Notes under the pieces: model-generated
What the model saw: only the letters and a program-made list of their open reading frames with translations
Told to the model about the DNA's origin: nothing
Databases searched by the model: none
Position numbers and translations under genes: made by a program
Source of the DNA: Candidatus Parcubacteria bacterium
Lineage (GTDB): Bacteria; Patescibacteriota; Minisyncoccia; UBA6257; 2-01-FULL-56-20
Direction: 5' to 3'
DNA: 64,000 nt
NCBI GenBank assembly: GCA_027324805.1
Contig: DAHVRZ010000002.1
Location: 85,658-149,657, forward strand
In this document: piece after piece, positions 5,322-57,262 of the stretch
Position numbering within the stretch: the first letter of the stretch is position 1
Layout of the letters: each line of letters starts with the position of its first letter

Positions 5322-5761
5322 ATTGTGCGATGTTTGAATTTCATGATCCGACTGATCATATATGCGATGCCCACGAGGTTGAACGCGATCCCGACCCAGA
5401 AAAGCTGTACTTGGTATGCCCCAATGAATGACGCGAACGCACTCACCCCGAGAACCGGCAAGATGTTCACGAGATAATGGGCGCAGCAGGAGATCATCGC
5501 GCCCGTGGACGTTGTTCCTGTCACGGCAAGCATTTTCCCGCTCGGATCCTTGGTGTGAATCTCGGCCTTCAGATAGCTGTACAACCCGATCTGGATGCCA
5601 AACCCAACCGCGAGACTTCCGAGATAGTACCAGTAACTTGAGAACTGGCTCGCGGCAAATCCAACGCCGGAGATGAGACCGACGACCAGGAAATATGCGC
5701 CGACCAAAGCTAGCGTTGCGGCTGCTCCCTTCGCGATCGATGTGATGACGGTGCGGTTCAT
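5318..5761 (-). CDS. 4-TM membrane protein with CCAHY motif
   Basis: ORF of 147 aa that overlaps the downstream gene by 4 nt. No family recognised. Confidence 0.5.
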   Translation of the reverse strand: MNRTVITSIAKGAAATLALVGAYFLVVGLISGVGFAASQFSSYWYYLGSLAVGFGIQIGLYSYLKAEIHTKDPSGKMLAVTGTTSTGAMISCCAHYLVNILPVLGVSAFASFIGAYQVQLFWVGIAFNLVGIAYMISRIMKFKHRTI

Positions 5762-11637: not shown

Positions 11638-11901
11638 TCATGTGATGCCCGGGATCTTGCTGTAGACCCACCGCACGACTTTGTAGCTGAAATAGCCCGC
11701 TTCGATCACGAGCACGATCCCGAACGTGATAAACAGCTCCGGTATGGGCAGAAAGATGTCGAACAGCGCGAGGTAGTTCCCCGCCTGCGTAAGTGTACCC
11801 GCGAGATTGACGGAAAGCGTCGCCACGGGCAATAGCGTGAGCGGGGCCGTGATGAGCTGGATGAGATATATGAAAATCTGTAGAAGCCAGTAGATGATCA
11901 T
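11638..11901 (-). CDS. Small polytopic membrane protein (87 aa)
   Basis: Hydrophobic ORF that overlaps the upstream gene by 4 nt (ATGA-type coupling). Confidence 0.45.
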   Translation of the reverse strand: MIIYWLLQIFIYLIQLITAPLTLLPVATLSVNLAGTLTQAGNYLALFDIFLPIPELFITFGIVLVIEAGYFSYKVVRWVYSKIPGIT

Positions 11902-13226
11902 AGCGTGATGTGTTGCACGAAGCGCAATATCCAGAATCCAAGCATGAGGATCAGCATGAAGGATATTCCTGCCCTCAGCGGATCGAGCACCGACGAAAAG
12001 GCGGCGTAGGTGGTCGTACTCATGAGCGTGCTCGTGTTTGTACCTTCCTGAAAGTCCTGGAACGCCGTAATAATGATCTTCGCGTAGCCGAACGGTATCC
12101 GGTTGCCGAGATTGCCCCAGATTCCGTTGAAGGAATCAAAAAGGGCCGCCTGCTCCGACGTGTTCGGAATAAAGAGATTGCACCCTGCTTGTTCGAGATT
12201 GCCCACCGGATCATTAAGGAAGGTCGAGGTGGTGAATTGGCAGTTTGCGGGCGTCGAGGACGTTTCCCCGCCGCCGAAATTGAACATGCCATTAGGAAAT
12301 GGCGCAAAGGCGGGCGCGTTGTTGCTGATCGTGAAGCTGATGACCGACCCCGTGATGTCGAAATTCGTCGAGGTGTTCGCCACTTCGAGATCGGCGTACC
12401 ACACGCTCGAACTCGGCCCCTGCGGAGTGAGGAATTGGTAGGTTTGTGGAATCTTGAGCTCGGTGTCCGTGCCGGGCGGAAGATCGGTGTAGGTGGTCGA
12501 TGCGGCGAGCGTAAGGTTGCCCGGACCCGTGCCGAAGTGGACGGTTACGACCCCGCTCTGAGTGCTCGTCGAATTGTTCGAGAGATAAAAATCCCAATTC
12601 GGGAATTGCCCGATCACCGCGCCATCGAAAGGCTGGAGGAACACAGGCTGCACGAGTTCCTGGATGGAGTTCACGTAGAAGATCTGCCAGTAGGTGCTGC
12701 CGTCGGTCGGCAATGATTCTCCCACGCCACAGGTATAGCCGTTGTAATAGAAAAAAGTGAGATAGATCGGCGTCGCCTGGGTAATGCTCAAAGTCGGCAC
12801 GAATGAATTGGAATTGGCATTCCATACCGTGCTCATCGGGCCGTACGTGTTGCCGTACGGCGCCTGGCTCGCTCCCGCATAGCTGCTGCCGAAACCGCCC
12901 GCGCATCCGCCGCCCGTACCCACACCGCCATGCGTGAGGACGTGCCCGCCGGCCGACCATCCGGCATACGGGCCGTTGTAACTGAGCTCCGGATCGGTGC
13001 TTGTCCCATTGATCGAGACCATGATGCCACCGGGCAGGTCGTACCCGCCGAAGCCGAGCTGCACCTTGTGCCAGTCGATCACGAGGTTGCCGTTCTGGTC
13101 GAGGTAGATCGAATCGGGCTGGACGTAGGTCGAGGGCGCCGTGATGCTGAACGCGAGCGCGTCATGCGACGAGAATATGAAAATGCCGAGGAGCGCGGCG
13201 AGGCCGACAAAAATATATTTCTTCAT
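11898..13226 (-). CDS. Secreted Gly/Thr/Asn-rich 442-aa protein with signal peptide and C-terminal TM anchor (type I membrane protein)
   Basis: Signal peptide at MKKYIFVGLAALLGIFIFSSHDALA and a beta-rich low-complexity ectodomain with scattered Cys. The C-terminus is AGISFMLILMLGFWILRFV. No family recognised. Confidence 0.6.
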   Translation of the reverse strand: MKKYIFVGLAALLGIFIFSSHDALAFSITAPSTYVQPDSIYLDQNGNLVIDWHKVQLGFGGYDLPGGIMVSINGTSTDPELSYNGPYAGWSAGGHVLTHGGVGTGGGCAGGFGSSYAGASQAPYGNTYGPMSTVWNANSNSFVPTLSITQATPIYLTFFYYNGYTCGVGESLPTDGSTYWQIFYVNSIQELVQPVFLQPFDGAVIGQFPNWDFYLSNNSTSTQSGVVTVHFGTGPGNLTLAASTTYTDLPPGTDTELKIPQTYQFLTPQGPSSSVWYADLEVANTSTNFDITGSVISFTISNNAPAFAPFPNGMFNFGGGETSSTPANCQFTTSTFLNDPVGNLEQAGCNLFIPNTSEQAALFDSFNGIWGNLGNRIPFGYAKIIITAFQDFQEGTNTSTLMSTTTYAAFSSVLDPLRAGISFMLILMLGFWILRFVQHITL

Positions 13227-13254
13227 GGTGGTGGGCGGGGAAATTCCATGTTTG

Positions 13255-13506
13255 TTATTGCCCGCGGTGGCGGATCGCGCTGATCACGAATTCGACGACG
13301 ACGAGCGCGAGAAGGACGCCGATGATGAGCGACATGTACCCCTCAAGGCTCGTGAGAAGCGCGGTCGCTTGGGCGAGAATGTCGCCCGTGAGGTTGGACG
13401 GAAGCACGATGGTGTCGCTCGCCGTTTGCGCAAAAACGAAAGCAGGCGCAAAAAAGGCCAGCGAAACCAGCGATGAAACTGTGATAAATATTTTCTTCAT
13501 GCGCAT
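13255..13506 (-). CDS. VirB2/TrbC-like pilin-type small protein (signal peptide + C-terminal hydrophobic segment), paralog 1
   Basis: The 83-aa ORF MKKIFITVSSLVSLAFFAPAFVFAQTASD...MSLIIGVLLALVVVEFVISAI has type-IV-secretion pilin-like topology. The call rests on topology only. Confidence 0.45.
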   Translation of the reverse strand: MRMKKIFITVSSLVSLAFFAPAFVFAQTASDTIVLPSNLTGDILAQATALLTSLEGYMSLIIGVLLALVVVEFVISAIRHRGQ

Positions 13507-13572
13507 ACGTGAAGGGACGCCTCACTGCATCCCCTCGCCTATGGGCTCTAGGTAGGGCGGCAAAACCGATAC

Positions 13573-13845
13573 CTAGTGAGCGCGGGCTCGCGACTTCGGC
13601 AACAAGCCGATGACCTGCTTCGCGAAGTAGAACACGAGCGGGATCGCTGCGGCGACCACGACGAGGCCTAAAATGCCCTGATCCGTGAAGATGTTGGACA
13701 CCGAGGCCAGGAGGTCCGTAACCGTCGAGGACGGCACCGTCAACGCTCCCGCCGGGATCGACTGCGCGTGCGCGGCCGCGACGGCAACGATGCCGAGGAT
13801 GGTAGCGCCTGCGCCAGAAACCCACATGGAAATTTTCTTGACCAT
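13573..13845 (-). CDS. VirB2/TrbC-like pilin-type small protein, paralog 2
   Basis: MVKKISMWVSGAGATILGIVAVAAAHAQS...TDQGILGLVVVAAAIPLVFYFAKQVIGLL. The track's ORF begins at a TTG codon 19 codons upstream, and the ATG start at MVKK is preferred here. Confidence 0.45.
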   Translation of the reverse strand: MVKKISMWVSGAGATILGIVAVAAAHAQSIPAGALTVPSSTVTDLLASVSNIFTDQGILGLVVVAAAIPLVFYFAKQVIGLLPKSRARAH

Positions 13846-13885
13846 GGTTGTGTTAATTGGTTTATATTTGCGACCTTTATTTTTC

Positions 13886-14011
13886 TCATAGCCAGATGTC
13901 AATGAAAGTGAAGAAGAACGCGTGCAGCGTCGTCGCTGCGAACAGGAGCAAAATCCACGAGGGATTCACCACCTGCGACCACGCGAGGAATATTTGATCG
14001 AGCGGCTGCAT
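13886..14011 (-). CDS. Tiny membrane peptide (41 aa) MQPLDQIFLAWSQVVNPSWILLLFAATTLHAFFFTFIDIWL
   Basis: Hand-translated, since it falls below the track's length cutoff. Its start overlaps the upstream stop (TGATG). Confidence 0.35.
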   Translation of the reverse strand: MQPLDQIFLAWSQVVNPSWILLLFAATTLHAFFFTFIDIWL

Positions 14012-14166
14012 CAGTGATTGAACCCGTCATTTTTGACCACGACCTTGAGCCACTTGTCTCCCGTGATACCGAGGAATATCCCCACCACGCCGTCAACGAG
14101 CGCCACGATGCAGAAATCGAGGGCGAACGTGAGCAGGATAAGTGCGATGAAATACTGGAAGGTCAT
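14011..14166 (-). CDS. Tiny membrane peptide (51 aa) MTFQYFIALILLTFALDFCIVALVDGVVGIFLGITGDKWLKVVVKNDGFNH
   Basis: Hand-translated. Its start overlaps the upstream stop with an ATGA overlap at 14163..14166. Confidence 0.4.
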   Translation of the reverse strand: MTFQYFIALILLTFALDFCIVALVDGVVGIFLGITGDKWLKVVVKNDGFNH

Positions 14167-14327
14167 GCGGGTTGAATATGGTTATGGTCGTCGTCAATCG
14201 GCTCGTAGTGATAATCGTCATCTCCGTCATCGTCGGCATTTTCGTCAACCGACCAGATGAGCGCGAACATGACGAGCATGAGAGAAAGCGCGCCGGACCA
14301 GAAGCCGTTGAAAAAATCCCAATTCAT
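14163..14327 (-). CDS. Small membrane peptide (54 aa) with acidic/His tail (MNWDFFNGFWSGALSLMLVMFALIWSVDENADDDGDDDYHYEPIDDDHNHIQPA)
   Basis: Track ORF 14163..14348, trimmed to the internal ATG that forms an ATGA overlap with the upstream peptide's stop. Confidence 0.45.
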   Translation of the reverse strand: MNWDFFNGFWSGALSLMLVMFALIWSVDENADDDGDDDYHYEPIDDDHNHIQPA

Positions 14328-14467
14328 TTTCCAAGTAATTTTTGCCACCAGGACTTTTTCGGCGGGACGTAGAATCCCATCGGGCGCGGCGGGCGCTTGA
14401 GCGCCGCGAGGCGCTTTGCGAGCCAGTACAAGATGACGAAACCGATGATGGTAAGGATAGGTGTCAT
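14324..14467 (-). CDS. Tiny membrane peptide (47 aa) MTPILTIIGFVILYWLAKRLAALKRPPRPMGFYVPPKKSWWQKLLGK
   Basis: Hand-translated. It starts 9 nt after the stop of the Cys-rich peptide. Confidence 0.4.
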   Translation of the reverse strand: MTPILTIIGFVILYWLAKRLAALKRPPRPMGFYVPPKKSWWQKLLGK

Positions 14468-14476
14468 GGTGGTGAT

Positions 14477-14638
14477 CTAATCTTCTTCGTCATCAATTTC
14501 CTCATCGTCTTCGTCGTCATCATCCAGATCGTCTTCGACATCGCCCAATTCATCGCCATATCCTTCATGGCAATGGCAGTTGCAAATATCCGGGCCATCA
14601 CAGAAATCGGGGTTGGAACAAATTGAGCAGACGATCAT
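14477..14638 (-). CDS. Cys6His2-rich peptide with poly-acidic tail (53 aa): MIVCSICSNPDFCDGPDICNCHCHEGYGDELGDVEDDLDDDDEDDEEIDDEED
   Basis: Hand-translated, with no internal stop. It is the first ORF after the AT-rich leader and has a metallothionein-like or zinc-knuckle-like Cys spacing. Confidence 0.4.
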   Translation of the reverse strand: MIVCSICSNPDFCDGPDICNCHCHEGYGDELGDVEDDLDDDDEDDEEIDDEED

Positions 14639-14677
14639 GATTCCATTTTGAAGCGGTCGTTAAAAAGTTTCCGCGGG

Positions 14678-14725
14678 GCCAAAGTGTGCATAACTGCCGA
14701 AAAGGAATTTATCCACACTTTGGCA
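14678..14725. repeat. 11-bp perfect inverted repeat GCCAAAGTGTG ... CACACTTTGGC (26-nt spacer) in operon leader
   Basis: Seen directly in the sequence at 14678..14688 and 14715..14725. Confidence 0.6.
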
Positions 14726-14743
14726 TTGGAAACAAAAACCGAA

Positions 14744-14852
14744 AGGGGCAAATATAAATACAGACTACACAGAAAGGAAGACGAGGAACTACAGAAAAAC
14801 GAGGAAGGGGCAAATCTTAATTAATTAAGAAATTAATTATATATTTGCCCCT
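14744..14852. repeat. Three AGGGGCAAAT boxes: direct at 14744..14753 and 14806..14815, inverted at 14843..14852 (next to a candidate -10 TATAAT at 14836..14841 on the minus strand)
   Basis: Seen directly in the sequence. The pattern is iteron or operator-like, in an AT-rich stretch of about 270 bp. Confidence 0.55.
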
Positions 14853-14870
14853 ATACAAGATAAAGAAAAA

Positions 14871-14900
14871 TCCGCCTGATATGGACAGGCGGATTTTCTT
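14871..14900 (-). terminator. Rho-independent terminator (TCCGCCTG-loop-CAGGCGGA + T-tract) after the winged-helix regulator gene
   Basis: An 8-bp GC-rich stem with a T-tract on the minus strand. It has an A-tract on the other side and may work in both directions. Confidence 0.6.
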
Positions 14901-14911
14901 GGAGCGTACCG

Positions 14912-15223
14912 TTAAAACTTGATCCGGTAGTAGGTCGCCTTCTTGAAAAAGCCTGATCCTTTTTTTGGATCTTTGAAGGTCGTTGTCCATTGCTGCAAAA
15001 ATCCTTTTTTGACGAGGATATTTTTTGCGATTCGGGCACCTTTGTAACTCATCCCAAGTTTCAATGCTATTTTCTGGAGCTCGACAATTTTTGGCACGCG
15101 GATGTTACCGATCTCCTCGACGAACGCCTGGTATACGCGCGTTTGCCTATCCGTGAGCCGCCGCAGTAGCACGGATCGCGTGGCCGCGCTCGACACTTCG
15201 CCGAGAGGGATAAATCCTTCCAT
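14912..15223 (-). CDS. Winged-helix transcriptional regulator (TrmB/MarR-like wHTH), 103 aa
   Basis: LTDRQTRVYQAFVEE...IVELQKIALKLGMSYKGARIAKNILVKKGFL matches the wHTH pattern. The gene lies between the rplK terminator and the leader of the peptide/pilin operon. Confidence 0.5.
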   Translation of the reverse strand: MEGFIPLGEVSSAATRSVLLRRLTDRQTRVYQAFVEEIGNIRVPKIVELQKIALKLGMSYKGARIAKNILVKKGFLQQWTTTFKDPKKGSGFFKKATYYRIKF

Positions 15224-15408
15224 GATTTTTTGGCGTTATCGCCCTTGCACACGCACGACAAAGGATGGGGATCAGCTCCCCCTCTCTGCCGAAGTGATAA
15301 ATCTTGCGACACCGACGATCGCATCGCGCGCATGTTTCCCAACGGGAAAATCGTTTTCTGTCCTTTTGCATCTCATAGGGGCGATTATTTTTCCGACCTT
15401 TGGATGCA

Positions 15409-15436
15409 ACAAAAAACCAGTCAGTAATGACTGGTT
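15409..15436 (-). terminator. Rho-independent terminator of rplK: 9-bp stem AACCAGTCA/TGACTGGTT with GTAA (GNRA) tetraloop + T-tract
   Basis: Seen directly in the sequence, 65 nt downstream of the rplK stop. Confidence 0.6.
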
Positions 15437-15500
15437 TCCGCCGGAGTACCCAATGATAATTTTTGGGAAACTCCGATTTTTACAGACTTTTTAGATTACG

Positions 15501-15926
15501 TTAGCCCTCAACAGTGATTCCCATATTCTTCGCGGTACCCGCAATGATGCGCTCCGCCGCGTCGAGATTGTCCGTATTGAGGTCCGGCAGTTTGCGCTCC
15601 GCGATCTTGCGGACATCCGCTTTTGTGACCGTTCCCACTTTGCTCTTCAAGGAATCCGCAGCACCTTTCTCAATATGCGCAGCTTGTTTAAGGAGCGCTG
15701 ATGCCGGCGGGGTCTTCAGAATGAAAGAGAATGAACGATCCTCATAGATCGTTATCTCCGCAGGAACCACGTCGCCCTTCATATCCTTTGTGGCGTCGTT
15801 GAACTGTTTGCAGAACTCCTGGATGTTGATGCCCTGGGGACCGAGCGCGGTACCCACCGGAGGCGCAGGATTCGCGCCGCCCGCGGGGAGTTGGAGCTTC
15901 AAGACGGTTTTAATCTTCTTGGCCAT
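15501..15926 (-). CDS. rplK: 50S ribosomal protein L11
   Basis: [43 protein letters not shown] is a canonical L11 N-terminus. The length is 141 aa. Confidence 0.95.
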
Positions 15927-16004
15927 GGTATTTGATAACGTAAGGTATAATAACCGATATTTTCGGTTTAAGCAAGAGCATGCAACGACGTGCTTATTCT
16001 CCTC

Positions 16005-16520
16005 TTAAAACGGGATATCCTCCGGTTTTATCTCTTCGTCTTCAAGGTTGATCACGGGGATATCGTCCAGCGACGGCGTATCGGTACCCTTTGATGCATC
16101 GCTGCCCGGCTGCGCCCCGCCGGCGGGAGCACCTGCCCCTGCACCGCCGCGAAAGCCGCCTCCCTGCCCTCCCCCCCCGCCAGGGCCGCCCATCGGACGC
16201 GGACCGAGTTGGAAGCGCTCACACATAATCTCCGTCGTTTTGCGCTGCTGACCCTGCTTGTCGGTCCAACTGCGCGTCTGAAGGCGCCCTTCGACGAGCA
16301 CCGTCGATCCTTTTGTAAGATATTGCCCGGCAATCTCGGCTTGGCGACCCCAGATCACGACATTATGAAACTCGGTCTCCTCCTGTCGGGCGCCCGCCTT
16401 GTCGGTCCAGGTGCGGTTCGTGGCGACGCCTATCGTGACGACCGACTGGCCGCCCGGGGTCGTACGAAGCTGGGGATCCGCCGTCACGCGGCCTACGATA
16501 ATAGCTTTATTGAAATCCAT
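16005..16520 (-). CDS. ssb: Single-stranded DNA-binding protein
   Basis: An OB-fold N-terminus, a Gly-rich linker and the acidic C-terminal tail ...DDIPF. Confidence 0.9.
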   Translation of the reverse strand: MDFNKAIIVGRVTADPQLRTTPGGQSVVTIGVATNRTWTDKAGARQEETEFHNVVIWGRQAEIAGQYLTKGSTVLVEGRLQTRSWTDKQGQQRKTTEIMCERFQLGPRPMGGPGGGGGQGGGFRGGAGAGAPAGGAQPGSDASKGTDTPSLDDIPVINLEDEEIKPEDIPF

Positions 16521-16609
16521 GAGATAAGTGAGGGTTATTGGTTTTGTTCGACCCCTTTATGCTACCACTATACGCTAAAATTTCCCTTAGGAAAAGGTGA
16601 GTCTCCGAT

Positions 16610-16636
16610 AAAACAAAACAGCCCCTTGCGGGGCCG
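16610..16636 (-). terminator. Rho-independent terminator after rpsF (GCCCC-GCAA-GGGGC hairpin + TGTTTTGTTTT)
   Basis: Seen directly in the sequence. The same hairpin core recurs at 30741..30754. Confidence 0.55.
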
Positions 16637-16645
16637 TTTTCCTCA

Positions 16646-17116
16646 TTATCCGAGTATCTCTTCGAGCTTCTTTTCGAGTGCCTCGTTGCTGAGCGGCTTC
16701 GGCGCCGCGGGGCGCGGCTCGGCCGCAGGACGCGTCGCGGAAGGCGAATAGCGTTCCACCGGCGCGGAACCGGGAATGCCTTTGGTAGACGCAACACGGA
16801 GCGAAGGCTTCGGAAGCTTGACGACAAGGGAGCGCAGAACGTCGGCACGGAGGCCGAGATCGTGCTCGAGCGCCTTCACTTCATCGCCGTAGGCTTTGAA
16901 TGTGACGCTTGCGAAAACGCCTTCCTTGTGACCCTTGACCTCATATGCCATGGCGAGCCGCTTGGCGCGCGCCTCTGACGTGATTTCTACCTTATGTTCC
17001 GCGAGGAGCGCAATCACGCCCGGAAGATCCTCCTCCTGGCGGATCAGAATGCCGAGCTCGTATTCCTTTTTATCCTTTTCTTCGTTGGTCATATGGATGA
17101 AAGCAACGTTGGTCAT
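16646..17116 (-). CDS. rpsF: 30S ribosomal protein S6 with Pro/Ala-rich C-terminal extension
   Basis: YELGILIRQE...KRLAMAYEVKG...LEHDLGLRADVLRSLVVKL matches the S6 pattern. Linkage to ssb is conserved. Confidence 0.75.
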   Translation of the reverse strand: MTNVAFIHMTNEEKDKKEYELGILIRQEEDLPGVIALLAEHKVEITSEARAKRLAMAYEVKGHKEGVFASVTFKAYGDEVKALEHDLGLRADVLRSLVVKLPKPSLRVASTKGIPGSAPVERYSPSATRPAAEPRPAAPKPLSNEALEKKLEEILG

Positions 17117-17162: not shown

Positions 17163-20100
17163 TTAGGCACTCGCTTCGGCCATTTCTTCCTCTTCCTGGA
17201 TCTCTCCTTCGTGGAGGATCACATCGGGCGAAAGGTCCTGCTTACCCGCAGGGATGAGCCGCCCGATAATGACATTTTCCTTGAGACCGCGAAGTTTATC
17301 GATCTTGCCCTCAATGGCGGCCTTCACGAGCACGCGCGAGGTATCCTGGAAGGATGCCGCAGAAAGGAACGACTCTGCAGAAAGCGCGATGCGCGTAATG
17401 CCAAGGAGCGTCTCATCCGCCTTCGCAGGCTTGCCGCCTTCCTTCTTGATCAGGCGGTTCACCTCAAGGAAGCGGGACTTCTCGACGATCTCGCCCATCA
17501 CAAAGTCCGGCGCGTCGCCCGCCTCGCGGATCTTCACGCGCGAGAACATCTGCCGCACGATCATTTCAATATGCTTGTTGTTGATGGAAGCGCCTTCCGA
17601 AGCGTAGATCTTCTGCACCTCGTTCACGATATACCGGCCCACCGCCGTCATTCCCCTGTGCTCGTAGAGCTCATGGATGTCGAGGTTACCTTCCGAAAGA
17701 CGGTCACCCTTCGTCACCTTGTCGCCCGCCTGCATGAAGAGCACCGTGCCGCGGGGTACGCTCACGTCCGTCGCCTTGCCTTTCTTGCCCTCGGGGATGA
17801 AGCGCACCACCTTGAGCGTGCCCTTCTCCTCGATCTTGTCCACTACCCCGTCGAAGGGAGCCAGGATGGCTCGTCCCTTCGGGGCACGGGTCTCGAAGAT
17901 CTCCTCCACGCGAGGGAGACCGTGCGTGATGTCGGCACCGGCGACGCCTCCCTGGTGGAAGGTACGCATGGTGAGCTGGGTGCCCGGTTCGCCGATGGAC
18001 TGTGCAGCGAGCACGCCCACCGCAGTACCCAGGGCCACCTTCTTGTTGCTGCTAAGGTCCAAACCATAACATTTGGCACAAATACCGTAGAAGGTCTTGC
18101 AGGTGATCGGCGAACGCACGATGACGCTCTCCACCTTTTCAGCCGCATCGATCGCCTCGGCGATCTCGTGGTCGATCGTTTCGCCCGCGCGGATGAGTAT
18201 CTTGTTCCCCGACTTCACGTCATCAAGCACCGTGCGGGAGAAAAGCCTTGACGCAAAGCTCTGATTGAACTCCTTGCCGTCGGCGCGCGAGATCTCGATG
18301 CCTTCCTTCGTGTGGCAGTCATCCTCGCGGATCGTAAGGTCCTGCGCAACATCCACGAGGCGTCGCGTAAGATAGCCGGCCTGTGCGGTCTTGAGCGCCG
18401 TGTCGGTCGTACCTTTGCGGGCGGCGTGGGTCATAATGAAGTACTCCAGAATGGAAAGGCCTTCTTTGAACGATGCCTTGATCGGGAGCTCGATCGTCTC
18501 GCCTTTCGGGTTCTGCACGAGACCCTTCATACCCATCATCTGAATCGGCTGGGACCATGAACCGCGGGACCCGGAATTGACGATCTGATAGATCGAGTTG
18601 TCCTCGGGGAAGATGTCCGCGATGAGCTTTGCGAGATCGTTCTTCGTCTTCTCCCACACGCTGATCACGCGCGAGCGGCGCTCGATCGGCGTAAGCAGAC
18701 CTTCCGCGTACTGTTCGTGAATGAGCTCAACCTCTTTGTCCGCTTTCGCCACCATTTCCTTCTTCTGCGGAGGAACGATGAGATCCGCTATTGCCCATGT
18801 GATGCCGGAAGTGGTCGCCATGTCATATCCGAGCTGTTTCACCCTGTCGATGACATCGCGCGTGGCGTCCATGCCGTGCAATTCGAACACGCGGGCGAGG
18901 ATCGCGTTGAGCTTCTTCTTCGTCACGAGATCGTTGTAGAACGGCACGGTACCGTCGAGCGCTTTGTTGAAGATAAGGCGGCCTGCGGTCGTCTCGACGT
19001 CGATCTCCCGTATCCTGAGCGGCGTATGAAGCGTAATCTGTCCGAAATGATACGCGAGCATTACCTCGTCGTAGTCGGTGAACCAGCGGATTGCAGCCCC
19101 TTCGGGAAGCTTCTCTATGCGCGTCATATAGTAGCTGCCGAGCACAACATCATTCCACGGGCCGGGAATGAGGTCACCCGTCGCCGGCTTCAGGAGATTC
19201 TTGCCTGCGGACATAATGTCGCGGGCCTCCTCTTGTGCCGCATCGGAGAGCGGGAGATGCACGGCCATCTGGTCGCCGTCGAAGTCCGCGTTGAATGCGG
19301 CGCAGACGAGCGGCGGAAGCTTGAGCGCAAGACCTTCAACGAGCTGCGGACGGAATGCCTGCACCGAAAGACGGTGGAGCGTCGGCGCGCGATTGAGGAG
19401 CACGTGCTTGTTTTTGATGATCTCTTCGAGGATGGCGAGCACTTCGGATGTGTGCTCTTCCATGAAGCGGGATGCGGAGCGCATGTTGTGCGCAAGTCCG
19501 CGCTTGATGATCTCGCTGATGACGAACGGGCGGAAAAGTTCGAGGCCCATGCGCTTCGGGATGCCCATCTCGTCGATCTTAAGCTTCGGACCGACCACGA
19601 TCACGGAGCGGCCGGAATAATCCACGCGTTTGCCGAGCAGGTTCTGACGGAAGCGGCCCTGTTTGCCCTTGAGCATGTCGGCGAGCGAACGGAGCGGACG
19701 GCGCTGTGCGGACATCTGCTGGGTGCCGAAGCGCGCCGAGTTGTCGATGAGCGCGTCCACCGCCTCCTGGAGCATGCGCTTCTCGTTGCGAACGATGACG
19801 TCCGGCGCCTTGATCTCAAGGAGTTTCTTCAGGCGGTTATTGCGGTTGATGACGCGGCGATAAAGGTCGTTGAGGTCCGAGGTCGCATAGCGGCCGCCGT
19901 CGAGCGCCACCATCGGACGAAGGTCCGGCGGGAGCACCGGGAGCATGGTCATGATCATCCATTCCGGGCGCTGGCCGTTGCGGACCATGGACTTGAACAT
20001 CTTGAGGCGGCGGAGCAGCTTCGACTGCGCCATCGGGTCGCGGGCGCCTTCGAGTTCCTTCTCGATTCCGACGATCTCCTTCTTGAGGTCCATCTTGTCG

Positions 20101-23100
20101 AGGATCTGCTGGACCGCTTCGGCGCCGCTCGAAGCCTTGAAGATATTGCCGAACTTGCGCGAAAGCGTGAAATATTCGTTCTCCGAGAGGATCTGGCCGA
20201 TGCGGAGCTTCTCGAGATACTCCTTCGTGGTGTCGGCGGCCTCCATGATCTCCCCTTTCACCTCCTTGTCCTTGTTGCCGACGGTCTTCAGCTTGCCCTT
20301 CAGCTCGCGCTCCAATTCCTCGAGCGCGGCCTTGCGGTTCTCTTCTTTTATCTCGGTAATGATATATGCGGAATAGTAGATGACGCGCTCAAGCTTCTGT
20401 GCAGACACATCGAGCGCGAGCGAAAGCCGCGACGGGATGCTCTTGAGGAACCAGATGTGCGAAACCGGCGTCGCAAGCGCGATATGGCCGATGCGTTCGC
20501 GGCGGACGGCCGCGCGCGTCACTTCGACGCCGCACTTGTCGCAGACCACGCCTTTATAGCGGATCCTGCGATATTTACCGCAGTAGCACTCATAATCCTT
20601 CGTGGGACCGAAGATGCGCTCGCTAAAGAGGCCGTCCTTCTCCGGACGCTGGGTGCGGTAGTTGATGGTCTCCGGCTTCGTGACCTCGCCGTGCGACCAG
20701 CGGAGAATATCCTCCGGCGACGCAACGCTTATCTTGAGCGCCGAGAAATTGTCCTTGCGCTCCGCTTCCGATTCATAGAGCGGCTGAATGTTGAAGCCGA
20801 GCGATTTGAGTTCGTTCACGAGCACATTGAACGACGCAGGGACATTCGGCTCCTTGATCTGTTCGCCGCGGATGATCGATTCGTACGCCGCCGCACGGCC
20901 GACCACGTCGTCGGATTTGATGGTGAGCATCTCCTGGAGCGTATGGCGCGCGCCGTAGCCTTCGAGCGCCCACACTTCCATTTCTCCGAAACGCTGGCCG
21001 CCGAACTGTGCCTTGCCGCCGAGCGGCTGTTGGGTGATCAAAGAGTAAGGACCGATCGAACGCATGTGCGCCTTGTCTTCCACGAGATGGTTCAGTTTGA
21101 GCATGTAGATCTGCCCGACCATGACGCGGTTCTGGAACGCCTCGCCCGTGCGACCGTCAAAAAGCTTCACCTTGCCGTCCTCCGGGAGGCCGGCCTTCCT
21201 GAGCTCTTCGCGGATATCCGCTTCGGTCGCCGAGTCGAGACCCGGCGTGATCGCGCGGTAGCCGAGCCTTTGCGCGGCCCAACCAAGGTGTGTTTCAAGA
21301 ATTTGCCCGAGGTTCATACGGGATACGACGCCAAGCGGGTTCAATATGATGTCCACCGGCGTGCCATCCTCAAGGTACGGCATGTCCTCCACGGAACGCA
21401 CCTGCGAGATGACGCCTTTGTTGCCGTGACGTCCGGCGAGCTTGTCGCCCGCCTGCACCTTGCGGAGCTCGGCGATCTCCACCTGGATGCGGCGGATGAT
21501 GCCCGGCTCGAGCTTATCGCCGCGCTCGCGATCGAATATCTTCACGTTCACGACGCGTCCCACCTTGCCGTGGGGAAGCGTAAGCGACGTATCTTTTACA
21601 TCGCGCGCCTTCTCGCCAAAGATGGCGCGGAGCAGGCGCTCTTCGGATGTAAGCTCGGACTCGCCCTTCGGCGATATCTTGCCGACGAGGATATCCCCCG
21701 CCTTCACCTCCGCGCCGATGCGGACGATGCCTTCCTCATCGAGGTTCTTGAGTTTGTCCTCCGAAACGTTCGGAATATCATAGGTGGTCACTTCGGGACC
21801 GAGCTTCGTGTCGCGCACATCGCAGGAATATTCGTCGATGTGGATCGAGGTAAAACGGTCCTGCTGGACGACACGCTCGGAGATGATGATGGCGTCCTCG
21901 AAGTTCGCGCCCTCCCATGAAACAAAGGATACGAGGAGGTTCTGGCCGAGCGCGAGGATGCCGTTTTCGATGGACGGACCGTCCGCGAGGATCTGGCCTT
22001 TCTTCACCGTTTCGCCGCGCACCACAAGCGGCTTCTGCGAGATGCAGGTGAACTGGTTGGAACGCTTGAACTTCTCGAGAATGTAGGTCTTGGTCGCCTT
22101 TTCGTACTTCACTTTGATATGACTGCCATCGGCCTCCATCACCTCCCCCGATCCTTCCGCGAGAATGACGTATCCCGAATCGAGCGCCACTTTCTCTTCC
22201 TGGCCGGTCGAGACGTACGGCGCGTCAGGGCGCACGGACACTACGGCCTGCCGCTGCATGTTCGAACCCATGAGAGCGCGGTTCGCGTCGTCATGCTGGA
22301 GGAACGGGATGAGCGAGGTCGCGACCGAGATGAACTCGTTCGGCGCGATATCGATGAAATCCACTTCGTTCGGCACAACCGTTCCCGGCTCGCCCTTGAT
22401 GCGGGTCTCAAGCGCCGTACCCAAGAGCTTTCCCTTTTCGTCACGCGGCGTGCCCGCGTGCGTGATCTTGTATTTTTCCTCTTCGGAAGCGTCCATCCAG
22501 ACGATCTCGTCCGTCACGACGCCGTTCTTTACGCGCGCGTACGGCGCCTCAAGGAAGCCGAAATCGTTGATGCGGGTATAGCTTGCAAGATAGTTGATAA
22601 GACCCACATTCGAACCTTCCGGCGTCTGAATCGGACAGATGCGGCCGTAATGGGAACGATGCACGTCGCGCACTTCGAACGATGCGCGTTCACGCGTAAG
22701 GCCGCCGGGGCCGAGGGCCGAGATGCGGCGCTTGTGTTCAAGCTCGGCAAGCGGGTTCACCTGGTCCATGAACTGCGAAAGCTGGGACGAGGCGAAGAAT
22801 TCCTTGATGACCGCCGCGATCGGGCGGAAATTCACGAGCTGGGCCGGCTGGAGCGAATCTTTGTCCTCTGTGGACATGCGGTCCTGGATGATGCGGCGGA
22901 GGCGCGCGAGACCGATACGGAGGCGTCCCTGGAGCAGCTCGCCCACCGCCTTCAGGCGGCGGTTGCCGAGATGGTCGATATCATCCGGCTCTGCTTCGGG
23001 TTCGTTGTTCAGTTTGATGATCTCTTTCACGATGGCAATAAGGTCCTCTTTTTCGAGGAGCTTCGTGCTCCGCTTGCGATCCAAATCAAGCCGCTGGTTC

Positions 23101-23915
23101 ATTTTGTAACGGCCGACCTCGGAGAGATCGTAGCGATCGGGGCGCTCGAACATCGCCGCAATGAGGTTGCGCGCGGTCTCGGCATTCGCCGGGTCGCCGG
23201 GACGGAGGCGGCGATAGATCTCGACATACGATTCGTCGGCATCTTTCGCGACGTCCTTCCTGATCGTCGTCTCTATATATTTGATAAGGCCTTCATCCGA
23301 ACCGGCGAACGCCTTTTTGATATCTTCGGTCGTCATGCCGAAGATGCGCAAAAGGTCCGTCACCGGAACTTTGCGGTGGCGGTCGATCTTCACGCTGATC
23401 TCACCGCTGATGTCGGTCTCGAACTCGAGCCACGCACCGCGATTCGGAATGATCTTCGCCCCGAAAAGCTGGTGACCGCGATACGGCACCGAGGTGAAGT
23501 ACACGCCCGGCGAACGGACGAGCTGGGAAACGACGACGCGCTCCACGCCGTTGATGATGAACGTGCCGCGGCCCGTCATGATCGGGAAGTCGCCGAAGTA
23601 GACCTCCTGCTTCATCTCGCGGCCCGTGCGGTTGTTCACAAGACGGAGGGTGCAGCGGAGCGGCGCTTCATAGGTCGCCTCCTTGTAGCGCGCGGTGGTC
23701 TCGTCATATTTCGGCTCATCGAAACGATAGTCCGAAAAATAAAGCTCGAACTCCTTGCCGGTATGGTCGCGGATCGGGGAAATCTCTTCGAGTAATTCAT
23801 TAAGGCCCTTCTTAAGGAACCACTCGTAGGAGTTCAGCTGCGCTTCGTTGAGATTGAACGGCGAGATGAGGGGTTTTGATTTTGCGAAACTCTTTGTGGA
23901 GGCGAATTTGGCCAT
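17163..23915 (-). CDS. rpoBC: DNA-directed RNA polymerase beta-beta' fusion (RpoB fused to RpoC), 2250 aa
   Basis: The N-terminus is RpoB (MAKFASTK...). After about 1100 aa the ORF runs through ...SLGFNIQPLYESEAERKDNFSALKISVASPEDILRWSHGEVTKPETINYRTQRPEKDGLFSERIFGP...YECYCGKYRRIRYKGVVCDKCGVEV, the RpoC N-terminus with its zinc finger, with no stop codon between. Confidence 0.9.
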   Translation of the reverse strand: MAKFASTKSFAKSKPLISPFNLNEAQLNSYEWFLKKGLNELLEEISPIRDHTGKEFELYFSDYRFDEPKYDETTARYKEATYEAPLRCTLRLVNNRTGREMKQEVYFGDFPIMTGRGTFIINGVERVVVSQLVRSPGVYFTSVPYRGHQLFGAKIIPNRGAWLEFETDISGEISVKIDRHRKVPVTDLLRIFGMTTEDIKKAFAGSDEGLIKYIETTIRKDVAKDADESYVEIYRRLRPGDPANAETARNLIAAMFERPDRYDLSEVGRYKMNQRLDLDRKRSTKLLEKEDLIAIVKEIIKLNNEPEAEPDDIDHLGNRRLKAVGELLQGRLRIGLARLRRIIQDRMSTEDKDSLQPAQLVNFRPIAAVIKEFFASSQLSQFMDQVNPLAELEHKRRISALGPGGLTRERASFEVRDVHRSHYGRICPIQTPEGSNVGLINYLASYTRINDFGFLEAPYARVKNGVVTDEIVWMDASEEEKYKITHAGTPRDEKGKLLGTALETRIKGEPGTVVPNEVDFIDIAPNEFISVATSLIPFLQHDDANRALMGSNMQRQAVVSVRPDAPYVSTGQEEKVALDSGYVILAEGSGEVMEADGSHIKVKYEKATKTYILEKFKRSNQFTCISQKPLVVRGETVKKGQILADGPSIENGILALGQNLLVSFVSWEGANFEDAIIISERVVQQDRFTSIHIDEYSCDVRDTKLGPEVTTYDIPNVSEDKLKNLDEEGIVRIGAEVKAGDILVGKISPKGESELTSEERLLRAIFGEKARDVKDTSLTLPHGKVGRVVNVKIFDRERGDKLEPGIIRRIQVEIAELRKVQAGDKLAGRHGNKGVISQVRSVEDMPYLEDGTPVDIILNPLGVVSRMNLGQILETHLGWAAQRLGYRAITPGLDSATEADIREELRKAGLPEDGKVKLFDGRTGEAFQNRVMVGQIYMLKLNHLVEDKAHMRSIGPYSLITQQPLGGKAQFGGQRFGEMEVWALEGYGARHTLQEMLTIKSDDVVGRAAAYESIIRGEQIKEPNVPASFNVLVNELKSLGFNIQPLYESEAERKDNFSALKISVASPEDILRWSHGEVTKPETINYRTQRPEKDGLFSERIFGPTKDYECYCGKYRRIRYKGVVCDKCGVEVTRAAVRRERIGHIALATPVSHIWFLKSIPSRLSLALDVSAQKLERVIYYSAYIITEIKEENRKAALEELERELKGKLKTVGNKDKEVKGEIMEAADTTKEYLEKLRIGQILSENEYFTLSRKFGNIFKASSGAEAVQQILDKMDLKKEIVGIEKELEGARDPMAQSKLLRRLKMFKSMVRNGQRPEWMIMTMLPVLPPDLRPMVALDGGRYATSDLNDLYRRVINRNNRLKKLLEIKAPDVIVRNEKRMLQEAVDALIDNSARFGTQQMSAQRRPLRSLADMLKGKQGRFRQNLLGKRVDYSGRSVIVVGPKLKIDEMGIPKRMGLELFRPFVISEIIKRGLAHNMRSASRFMEEHTSEVLAILEEIIKNKHVLLNRAPTLHRLSVQAFRPQLVEGLALKLPPLVCAAFNADFDGDQMAVHLPLSDAAQEEARDIMSAGKNLLKPATGDLIPGPWNDVVLGSYYMTRIEKLPEGAAIRWFTDYDEVMLAYHFGQITLHTPLRIREIDVETTAGRLIFNKALDGTVPFYNDLVTKKKLNAILARVFELHGMDATRDVIDRVKQLGYDMATTSGITWAIADLIVPPQKKEMVAKADKEVELIHEQYAEGLLTPIERRSRVISVWEKTKNDLAKLIADIFPEDNSIYQIVNSGSRGSWSQPIQMMGMKGLVQNPKGETIELPIKASFKEGLSILEYFIMTHAARKGTTDTALKTAQAGYLTRRLVDVAQDLTIREDDCHTKEGIEISRADGKEFNQSFASRLFSRTVLDDVKSGNKILIRAGETIDHEIAEAIDAAEKVESVIVRSPITCKTFYGICAKCYGLDLSSNKKVALGTAVGVLAAQSIGEPGTQLTMRTFHQGGVAGADITHGLPRVEEIFETRAPKGRAILAPFDGVVDKIEEKGTLKVVRFIPEGKKGKATDVSVPRGTVLFMQAGDKVTKGDRLSEGNLDIHELYEHRGMTAVGRYIVNEVQKIYASEGASINNKHIEMIVRQMFSRVKIREAGDAPDFVMGEIVEKSRFLEVNRLIKKEGGKPAKADETLLGITRIALSAESFLSAASFQDTSRVLVKAAIEGKIDKLRGLKENVIIGRLIPAGKQDLSPDVILHEGEIQEEEEMAEASA

Positions 23916-56431: not shown

Positions 56432-57262
56432 ATGCCTCCCCGCCTCATACTTTTCGAGGAATATGCGAAGATCGCGGTGATCTCCCTTGCGGGACTCGTC
56501 ATGCTCATCGGCGGCGGGATCGCCCTTTCCTGGTACAACGGCCAGCAACCCGCGCCGTGCAATGTTGCGGACATCACCCTTTACGGCACGCTTGTCTACT
56601 ATCCGAGCGAGAACAGCGGTGCGGCCTCGAGCGCCGCAGGCGACGGGACGCTCGACCAGACGGCGGCCGAAGACGTGCGGCAGCAGATCGAACAGGCCAA
56701 TGCCGATCCGAACATCAAAGCGATCCTTCTCCAGATAGACTCCCCCGGCGGCGATCCTGTCGCCGGCGAAGACATCGCGGACGCCCTGAAGCAGTCCGGC
56801 AAGCCGACGGTGGCGTTCGTCGCCGACGAGGGAACCTCGGCAGCGTACTGGGCGGCGACGGGCGCCAACGCGATCTTCGCGTCGGCGGATTCCGCGCTCG
56901 GCGACATCGGCGTGACGAACTCATATCTCCAACAGACGCAGCAGGACACCGCGAACGGCCTTCAATTCATCTCGATCACCGCCGGACCGTACAAGGATAT
57001 GGGCAACCCCGACTCTCCGCTCACGCCCGCCGAAAAGGACCTTCTTCAGCGCGACGTCAACATCACCTACCGGAACTTCGTCCAGCAGGTCGCCGCAAAT
57101 CGGAACCTTTCCGTGGCAAGCGTGACGGCGATCGCCGACGGCTCATCCATGCTCGGCCAGATGGCGCTCCAGAACGGACTCATTGACCACATCGGGAGCA
57201 TTTATGATACCGAGGATTATCTCGCCAAGAAGATCGGCGGCCCCGTTACGCTCTGCCAATAA
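56432..57262 (+). CDS. sppA: Signal peptide peptidase SppA (S49 family, 36K type)
   Basis: An N-terminal TM, LLQIDSPGG and the catalytic Ser/Lys regions. Confidence 0.8.
   Translation: MPPRLILFEEYAKIAVISLAGLVMLIGGGIALSWYNGQQPAPCNVADITLYGTLVYYPSENSGAASSAAGDGTLDQTAAEDVRQQIEQANADPNIKAILLQIDSPGGDPVAGEDIADALKQSGKPTVAFVADEGTSAAYWAATGANAIFASADSALGDIGVTNSYLQQTQQDTANGLQFISITAGPYKDMGNPDSPLTPAEKDLLQRDVNITYRNFVQQVAANRNLSVASVTAIADGSSMLGQMALQNGLIDHIGSIYDTEDYLAKKIGGPVTLCQ

Follow-up and report, generated by a model that had tools for sequence, protein, structure and literature searches.

Within the 64,000-nucleotide stretch of DNA analysed here (the window), an AT-rich region separates the gene of a small winged-helix protein from an operon of mostly tiny genes. 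We read this region, with a probability of about one half, as a DNA-level hub of operator boxes and a promoter that would receive an input from the host initiator DnaA and would probably give rise to a leaderless transcript. The region lies between the regulator gene and the operon and is conserved together with the operon, as would be expected of the operator/promoter region of a mobile element. It is a genuine regulatory hub, of a kind already familiar and not a system of a new type; it changes no general principle, and its value lies in being a well-defined entry point rather than a surprise. Because CPR bacteria (Patescibacteria) are uncultivated, their mobile elements and their gene regulation are almost unknown.

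Since the winged-helix gene, the boxes and the operon are all on the minus strand, the order of the parts is regulator gene, terminator, boxes and operon. In that direction, the features are:

14912..15223, minus strand: gene of the 103-aa winged-helix protein, the first conserved gene of the mobile island described below and the candidate binder of the boxes
14866..14898: predicted intrinsic terminator hairpin for the winged-helix gene, its minus-strand T-run extending to ~14856
14843..14852, minus strand: box 1, AGGGGCAAAT on the gene strand, with TATAAT (14841..14836, minus strand) directly 3' of it
14817..14842: invariant AT-rich palindrome, ATATAATTAATTTCTTAATTAATTAAG on the gene strand
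14806..14815, plus strand: box 2, oriented opposite to box 1, with AGGGGCAAAT on the plus strand and ATTTGCCCCT on the gene strand
14757..14805, minus strand: variable spacer, rich in pyrimidines on the gene strand, that separates boxes 2 and 3
14744..14756, plus strand: box 3, AGGGGCAAATATA on the plus strand and TATATTTGCCCCT on the gene strand
14678..14724: palindrome with two inverted DnaA-box 9-mers, TTATCCACA at 14709-14717 (plus strand) and TTATGCACA at 14685-14693 (minus strand)
14667..14673, minus strand: candidate -35-like element, (A/C)GGAAAC, with CGGAAA at 14673..14668
14645..14650, minus strand: candidate -10 element, CAAAAT (family pattern nAnAAT), exactly 6 nt from the ATG
14477..14638, minus strand: first gene of the operon, encoding a 53-aa Cys-rich protein with an acidic tail

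We gathered related loci with an alignment of the winged-helix protein as an unbiased probe, together with exact look-ups, and compared the 23 sequence-distinct versions represented among ~45 loci that carry the winged-helix gene or the control region. A single layout is repeated across these 23 versions, which is more than chance would give. It runs from the terminator through box 1, the AT palindrome and the inverted box 2 to the spacer and box 3; 35-36 nt further on comes the DnaA-box palindrome, followed by (A/C)GGAAA, 17 nt, nAnAAT, 6 nt and the ATG. Mean pairwise identity was 92.5% in the block formed by box 1, the AT palindrome and box 2, 88.5% in box 3, 73% in the coding sequence of the regulator, 71% in the spacer between boxes 2 and 3, 69% in the 53-aa gene and 62% in the terminator region. 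The original prediction had placed a sharp drop in GC here against a background of ~60%; the trough is real (0.35-0.42), but the baseline is 0.564 across the whole window.

That the region is bracketed by a terminator and the start of an operon, as had been proposed, agrees with the comparison on both sides. Upstream, the hairpin at 14866-14898 has a 13-bp stem with 6 G-C pairs and a 7-nt loop, followed by the T-run, and an A-run upstream of it gives it a bidirectional appearance. A hairpin and T-run of differing stem sequence were found in all 20 versions in which a gene directly precedes the region, and the hairpin was absent from the 3 versions with a cassette upstream. Its structure is thus kept while its sequence varies, and we assign it as a predicted intrinsic terminator. 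With a terminator upstream, the operon needs a promoter of its own. Downstream, the 53-aa protein follows the pattern M-x2-C-x-I-C ... C ... C-x-C-x-C-H and then a D/E tail, and the open reading frame was intact (41-53 aa), with its Cys/His pattern and acidic tail kept, in 22/22 versions examined. Because this frame is intact and conserved, the operon start is taken as real. The rest of the operon encodes tiny membrane proteins and a 442-aa secreted protein. Gene callers mostly overlook the 53-aa gene.

Three boxes had been described, two of them direct copies 62 bp apart and one an inverted copy next to a minus-strand TATAAT, and all are present: exact AGGGGCAAAT occurs at 14744-14753 (plus), 14806-14815 (plus) and 14843-14852 (minus), with no further copy in the 64 kb. 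The hexamer directly after box 1 is conserved as TATAAT or TATATT. Box 3 is at once a direct repeat of box 2 and, over 13 nt, a perfect inverted repeat of box 1 (AGGGGCAAATATA), so that boxes 1 and 3 flank 83 bp. Boxes were found at the same positions in homologous loci, including those whose winged-helix protein is only 70% identical, so that they withstand the refuting condition set originally (a lack of conservation in such loci), and TATATTTGC of box 3 was invariant in 22/23 versions. Between boxes 1 and 2 lies the AT palindrome (26 bp, ~92% A+T), which occurs exactly once in each locus spanning the region and always directly before the small-gene operon. It stays with the operon even in three loci (L014, L017 and L030) in which DGR or other cassettes separate the regulator gene from it. 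The invariance of this palindrome exceeds what a simple operator would need.

The spacings between these elements fall into discrete classes. Box 3 lies either 62-66 or 73-75 nt from box 2, the two classes differing by roughly one turn of the helix, and the two DnaA boxes are either 22-25 or 14-15 nt apart, again a difference of ~10 bp. From box 3 to the left DnaA box there are 35-36 nt in 23/23 versions, across variable sequence. That each of two variable spacers comes in steps of ~10 bp argues for proteins bound on faces of duplex DNA. Of the multiples of about 10.3 bp that had been proposed to separate the boxes, only the distance from box 2 to box 3 (62 bp in the window) comes near one; the offset of box 1 to box 2 is 32-37 bp. 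The two stepped spacers lend helical phasing some comparative support.

Could the region instead be a site for some other DNA transaction, such as the transfer origin of a helper-mobilised element, a signal for packaging, or a promoter switch that inverts between boxes 1 and 3 as its 13-nt inverted repeats? AT-rich intergenic inverted repeats beside the gene of a small DNA-binding protein are typical of transfer origins, the 13-nt inverted repeat of boxes 1 and 3 is perfect and encloses 83 bp, and the island encodes a tyrosine recombinase. However, we detected no relaxase, coupling protein, type IV secretion, terminase or capsid genes in the island, and in one group of loci (the NYN type, below) the match of box 1 to box 3 as inverted repeats is no longer good. 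An inverton was rejected because the stretch from box 1 to box 3 had the same orientation in all 23 versions. We regard a DNA-transaction site as highly improbable. Arm-type integrase sites were also considered and rejected, as a whole gene separates the boxes from the attachment core, which is 560-750 bp away.

The boxes are best explained, on present comparisons, as putative binding sites of the adjacent winged-helix protein. The original prediction had called this protein a winged-helix regulator, and modelling agrees: its AlphaFold2 model (pLDDT 78.7) has the H-H-H-H-beta-beta topology of a wing, and Foldseek returned only generic winged-helix regulators (ArsR, MarR, CodY, TFE; best E 2e-3). 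The 103-aa protein had no match in Pfam or PHROGs and no solved-structure match to Rep proteins, and by its model it is a generic single winged helix. Its homologues formed 42 clusters at 68-97% identity.

Two types of predicted recognition helix were found among these proteins, SYK(G/A)xRxAKN and NYN(K/Y)ARK(C/Y)KN. SYK-type loci, whose proteins are 70-100% identical to that of the window, always carried GGGGCAAAT and ATTTGCCC at boxes 1 and 3, with box 1 invariant in all of them, and equally divergent SYK loci (70% identity) retained these canonical boxes. In all 7 distinct NYN-type loci, boxes 1 and 3 read (G/T)TACAAAT and ATTTGC(A/G)(T/A): box 1 was replaced by GTTACAAAT or GGGGTACAAAT, and the CCC(C/T) part of box 3 was changed to ATT or GAA. 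Three of these NYN-type loci had been fetched as a test of this prediction, and the boxes were altered in 3/3. The match of helix type to box type is perfect, yet it reflects one split between clades and may therefore stem from shared ancestry; that helix type tracks the sequence of boxes 1 and 3 is suggestive of a link between regulator and site. The claim that the boxes are regulator binding sites gains from their conservation and from the differing outer halves of boxes 1 and 3, but box 2, which reads GAT(T/A)TG(C/T)(C/T)CC in both protein types, is unchanged, as is the AT palindrome. If the link holds, the SYK and NYN helices with their GGGGCAAAT and GTTACAAAT boxes would be a natural specificity variant of a regulator-site pair. 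Upstream of the regulator gene, the start of a conserved zinc-ribbon open reading frame is overlapped by another site, a degenerate one that resembles the boxes; this site, upstream of the regulator operon, did not differ between SYK and NYN types.

Downstream of the boxes, the 11-bp perfect inverted repeat noted originally is present, with arms at 14678-14688 and 14714-14724, and belongs to a longer, 21-nt imperfect palindrome (14678-14698 / 14704-14724). Its arms read TGTGGATAA and TTATNCACA. The window contains three matches to TTATNCACA where 0.61 would be expected, two of which are the palindrome arms; across the family, the right arm matched TTATNCACA in 22/23 versions and the left arm in 17/23, the remainder having one mismatch. 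The repeat is better read as two putative DnaA boxes in inverted orientation. The island has a third perfect TTATCCACA in the stretch from the integrase gene to the attachment fragment. Beside the right DnaA box, inspection by eye found no 3-nt periodicity of the DnaA-trio or basal-unwinding kind, and this flank is not conserved.

We examined how the two arms of the palindrome vary together over 18 versions, in which 86% of cells were paired. The outer stem showed compensatory double changes at 4-5 pairs and no one-sided changes. Within the boxes, the pair involving the N position was unpaired in 10/18 versions, N being C, G or A without compensation on the other arm, and of the other 8 box positions 7 paired in at least 17/18 versions and one in 14/18. 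Because only N varies uncompensated, the pattern follows the degeneracy of the DnaA-box consensus and not that of an RNA helix. The co-varying flanks suggest that a hairpin or cruciform may matter here as well. DnaA binding alone does not account for the compensatory changes in the outer stem.

The same region had alternatively been proposed as an RNA regulatory element, in which a promoter at the TATAAT of box 1 would produce a leader of ~200 nt whose two hairpins (a stem of box 1, palindrome and box 2, and the stem at 14678-14724) would control stability, processing or translation, or, in a variant, a short antisense RNA. RNA of the gene strand does fold into two long hairpins (z-score -5.1 against shuffles), and the conserved TATAAT or TATATT directly after box 1 and the compensatory double changes at 4-5 pairs of the second hairpin are what such an element would show. 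However, searches of Rfam at gathering score and at E<=10 returned noise only, with a best score of 28 bits against a cutoff of 60 bits. Most stem positions keep their sequence and do not co-vary, and the stem is interrupted exactly at the N of the DnaA box in 10/18 versions. No G-U pairs, and hence no G-U intermediates, were found in the stem over 18 versions, so that strand-specific RNA pairing is not indicated; the comparison of G-U with A-C is uninformative on the folding strand. Pairing of box 1 with box 2 is lost where the boxes change (in L012, L014, L043, L052 and L054), the -35 position of the box 1 promoter is not conserved, and spacer steps of ~10 bp matter for faces of DNA but not for RNA loops. 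We consider action at the RNA level improbable.

Under our preferred reading, an operator/promoter hub acting as DNA, the transcript would probably be leaderless. A sigma-70 scan of the gene strand found no promoter at the tool threshold, and a relaxed, alignment-based scan left just two candidates. The first is the TATAAT/TATATT abutting box 1, which lacks a conserved -35 and would leave the leader of ~200 nt. The second consists of conserved hexamers around a variable spacer: (A/C)GGAAA, 17 nt, nAnAAT, 6 nt and ATG are constant in 23/23 versions while the sequence of the 17-nt spacer varies. GGAAA is invariant and the next C nearly so, and GGAAAC stands exactly 34 nt from the ATG in 23/23 versions. 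A sigma-70-type promoter of a leaderless mRNA should have a -35 and a -10 hexamer separated by 16-18 bp, the latter 6-7 nt ahead of the start codon; the spacings of the second candidate agree with this and would put +1 on the A of the start codon. Its (A/C)GGAAA agrees with TTGACA at 3/6 positions only. The genome is almost free of Shine-Dalgarno motifs, and its other genes have TATAAT or TATACT 6-7 nt before the ATG; leaderless starts are plausible because of this near absence and because of the -10-like hexamers near ATGs. The original 5'-UTR of ~190 nt was an assumption, and one made doubtful by a -35/-10-like pair conserved at a fixed 34/35 nt from the ATG. The candidate promoter would offer a conserved geometry in which transcription begins at the start codon, in a genome nearly devoid of Shine-Dalgarno motifs.

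Taken as a hub of this kind, the region would work as follows. Transcription of the winged-helix gene would end at the hairpin terminator. The island's winged-helix protein may bind the GCAAAT-containing boxes, of which boxes 1 and 3 would serve as an inverted pair ~97 bp apart, and this binding could turn the operon on or off. Host DnaA may bind the two inverted boxes, which lie directly upstream of the candidate core promoter, and could thereby couple expression of the operon to the replication state of the host. RNA polymerase would start at or next to the ATG and produce a leaderless mRNA, and the element would act as DNA rather than as a structured RNA leader. With a start at the ATG, the boxes would be upstream operator or activator sites, not non-functional ones.

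Promoters regulated by DnaA include those of dnaA and nrdAB in E. coli and of sda and the dnaA operon in Bacillus subtilis. As in those promoters, the putative DnaA boxes here lie within ~20-70 bp upstream of the candidate core promoter. The present case differs in that the boxes form an extended palindrome with co-varying flanks, and in that the host initiator would serve a mobile element as its sensor. If the element does read host DnaA, it would be a mobile element that senses the replication status of its host in a reduced-genome symbiont.

The window itself is cellular: it contains a fused rpoB-rpoC and genes for S6, SSB, L11, FtsW, YceG and DUF4012, and its relatives are labelled Candidatus Paceibacterota or Parcubacteria. 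We conclude that it is a Paceibacterota-like (CPR) genome. By sequence comparison, the AT-rich region lies within a mobile genomic island of ~23 kb that encodes a tyrosine integrase and has the 3' end of rplK as its insertion site. Compared with rplK-linked contigs, the window differs by ~25% in rplK and ~24% in rpoBC, whereas below ~15500 identity is ~100%; identity to other hosts rises from ~73-75% inside rplK to ~100% from ~15500 downward. The boundary is:

15410..15529, minus strand: left end of the island, with an attachment region that overlaps rplK over its final ~25 nt, together with the hairpin downstream of that gene

When the 103-aa protein was looked up by exact sequence, the same gene block turned up in two settings, after rplK as in the window or after a tyrosine integrase. 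In four loci (L001, L003, L004 and L056), a fragment of the rplK 3' end (its last ~25 nt with the downstream hairpin) lies 3' of the integrase gene. The window covers only the left ~15.5 kb of the island, with the integrase beyond its start; neither an integrase nor an attR was found within it (tblastn with the L001 integrase; self-search with the attachment region). The complete element is visible in L056, ~23 kb long, in this order:

rplK 3' end, winged-helix gene, control region, and open reading frames of 53, 47, 54, 51, 41, 90, 83, 442 and 87 aa
C5 methylase, sigma70_r4-like gene, CsoR
DsbD, redoxin, ICMT, C39, DUF302, DSBA
copper ATPase, Fic, integrase

Beyond the integrase, L056 continues with a DnaA box, an rplK 3' fragment and then a second family member in tandem, 84% identical. 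Some family members are inserted after gap rather than rplK, and in three loci (L021, L023 and L030) we found no bounding direct repeats of at least 20 nt. As its copies are identical although the core genes of the hosts are ~25% apart, the island would be a recently active integrative element with a precisely defined target at the 3' end of rplK or gap. A known phage, plasmid or virus was rejected as its source: INPHARED held no match to positions 13000-17000 (blastn) or to the 442-aa protein (tblastn), PLSDB none to the winged-helix protein (tblastn), and IMG/VR no relative. In PHROGs, 9 small proteins had no match and a tenth protein matched methyltransferases only.

An island of this kind might excise, and the region could then be the replication origin (oriV) of its circular form, in which boxes serving the winged-helix protein as iteron-like initiator sites, an AT palindrome that unwinds and DnaA boxes that recruit the initiator and helicase of the host would act together. 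Such a reading would explain why repeated boxes, a 26-bp stretch of 92% A+T and two DnaA boxes lie within 180 bp beside the gene of a DNA-binding protein, with extreme conservation of sequence, fixed spacings quantised by helical turns and a third DnaA box at the junction of integrase and attachment site. Iteron-type plasmid origins (pSC101, P1, RK2, R6K) likewise combine DnaA boxes, an AT-rich segment and short repeats beside a winged-helix gene, and the spacings here respect the helical repeat. We took such origins to have at least 3 tandem direct repeats of ~17-22 bp at a spacing of ~22 bp, a cognate Rep gene (for a protein with two winged-helix domains or of the Rep_3, RepA or TrfA type), and one or more DnaA boxes with an AT-rich segment, and found the DnaA boxes and the AT-rich segment but neither tandem repeats nor a Rep initiator. 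In place of 3-7 tandem iterons of 17-22 bp, the region has just three boxes, unevenly spaced and 10-13 bp long, of which two are direct and one is inverted. The suggestion that the boxes are iterons in the plasmid sense consequently does not fit, the ~23-kb element also showing no Rep-type initiator.

Other observations point the same way. No Rep, helicase, primase or rolling-circle nuclease was found among the island proteins scanned or carrying precomputed Pfam labels, and the 103-aa single winged helix, which has no Rep-family match, is unlike the two-domain initiators of iterons. In every case the region accompanies the operon start, keeping a constant 34 nt to the ATG, and an array locked to a gene start with single-nucleotide precision is promoter-like and unlike iteron-type origins. 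Junctions of integrase and regulator are explained by tandem arrays, as in L056, and no circular contig of the island was found. An element that serves to melt would not need an invariant sequence. We therefore consider an oriV unlikely, though deserving of more weight than the RNA-level and DNA-transaction readings. As observations in their own right, the lack of a detected replication gene and the single-nucleotide coupling to a gene start are the main points against a DnaA-dependent origin.

A variant of the oriV reading takes the DnaA-box hairpin as a single-strand priming signal. A passage of PMC6127211 (citing Masai 1990, 1995; Carr & Kaguni 2002) describes the 'A site' of the ABC primosome as a stem-loop with a DnaA box in its stem, a documented DnaA-dependent priming signal. 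The palindrome here resembles the 'A site' of that passage in having a DnaA box in a palindrome stem whose flanking positions are kept complementary by compensatory change, as would be expected of an obligatory DNA hairpin. It differs from the 'A site' as described there in having two complete boxes, inverted and in duplex DNA, directly upstream of an element that resembles a promoter. No rolling-circle Rep was found, which leaves a single-stranded DNA stage of the island unsupported.

More speculatively, the array could be the host-DnaA-dependent replication or priming origin of small, undescribed virus-like or vesicle-forming mobile elements of CPR bacteria, which we rate as rather improbable. 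If so, the tiny membrane proteins, two coat-like proteins with signal and transmembrane segments and the 442-aa anchored surface protein would form a particle module, and the island would replicate with host proteins and only a minimal 103-aa winged-helix initiator.

As an operator/promoter hub, the region has its closest counterparts in the repressor-operator/promoter switch regions of temperate phages and integrative islands (lambda-type immunity regions, for example, or the stretch from regulator to operon in phage-inducible chromosomal islands). It shares with them a gene for a small DNA-binding protein beside the attachment site, repeated and inverted operator boxes before the main operon of the element, and tandem relatives with the same boxes, which would allow cross-regulation. 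In contrast to those regions, with which it has no kinship of sequence or family, its regulator is a generic winged helix and not a helix-turn-helix of the Cro/CI type, and regulator gene and operon are co-directional with a terminator between them rather than divergent. Its boxes also lie 100-210 bp upstream of the likely start site, and its array includes the invariant 26-bp AT palindrome and the pair of DnaA boxes.

An integrative island of ~23 kb sits at the 3' end of rplK, and its sequence was ~100% identical among hosts whose own rplK and rpoBC were just ~75% identical. Loci from related genomes carrying the same island family are given L numbers, and plain coordinates refer to the window.

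1..~15500, extending past the window start: the island
L056:1132-20576: full island copy

The cargo includes copper and redox genes (CsoR, copper P-type ATPase, HMBD, DsbD, redoxin, DSBA and DUF302), along with Fic, a C5 methylase and a tyrosine integrase, and a second family member was found in tandem with the island. A third perfect DnaA box, TTATCCACA, was present at L001:~5575-5585 and also in L003, L004, L046 and L056 (reverse complement, position ~40); it is flanked by the integrase stop codon on one side and by the rplK 3' attachment fragment on the other.

Downstream of the control region, the conserved module of small-protein genes encodes membrane and secreted products.

11638-13902 (-): module protein genes
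L021:10820-12148: homologue in a related locus

The 90-aa and 83-aa proteins each combine a signal peptide with a transmembrane segment and are coat-like, the 442-aa protein is secreted with a membrane anchor at its C-terminus, and the 87-aa protein is a membrane protein. The L021 homologue matched the STIV turret domain (PF21876) weakly, below threshold. These products could serve as particle components or surface adhesins.

Each winged-helix gene is preceded by a small zinc-ribbon ORF, missed by gene callers, that overlaps the start of the winged-helix gene in a different frame.

15147-15371 (-): conserved zinc-ribbon ORF, W-x2-C-x2-C ... C-x2-C
15378-15387 (+): degenerate box-like site AGGGGCGATT, containing the ATG of this ORF
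L014:6363-6488, also in L018, L029 and L030: extra 41-aa ORF (MEKNKKAGLSDKEIAEL...), located after the winged-helix gene and before the terminator

The box-like site could be an autoregulatory operator. The extra 41-aa ORF is present in some family members only.

The insertion point of diversity-generating retroelement cassettes, made up of a reverse transcriptase, bAvd and two 115-nt repeats sharing 89% identity, varies among family members, and the L014 cassette separates the winged-helix regulator gene from the control region.

L014:6680-9230: cassette
L003:2530-3919: cassette
L017:14572-14686 / 15170-15284: cassette repeat pair

The host genome itself showed fused genes and an unusual gene order, in which L11 occupies the place after ssb, the usual spot of rpsR (S18).

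15501-17116 (-): rpoBC, rpsF (S6), ssb, rplK (L11)
17163-23915 (-): fused rpoB-rpoC, 2250 aa
38798-41308 (-): fused glucose-6-phosphate dehydrogenase / 6-phosphogluconate dehydrogenase, 836 aa

Across the whole window, Shine-Dalgarno motifs are missing from nearly all genes, and in some genes, such as the fused dehydrogenase gene and 56432-57262 (+), TATAAT or TATACT lies 6-7 nt ahead of the ATG. Together, these two features suggest that leaderless or SD-independent initiation is widespread in this genome.
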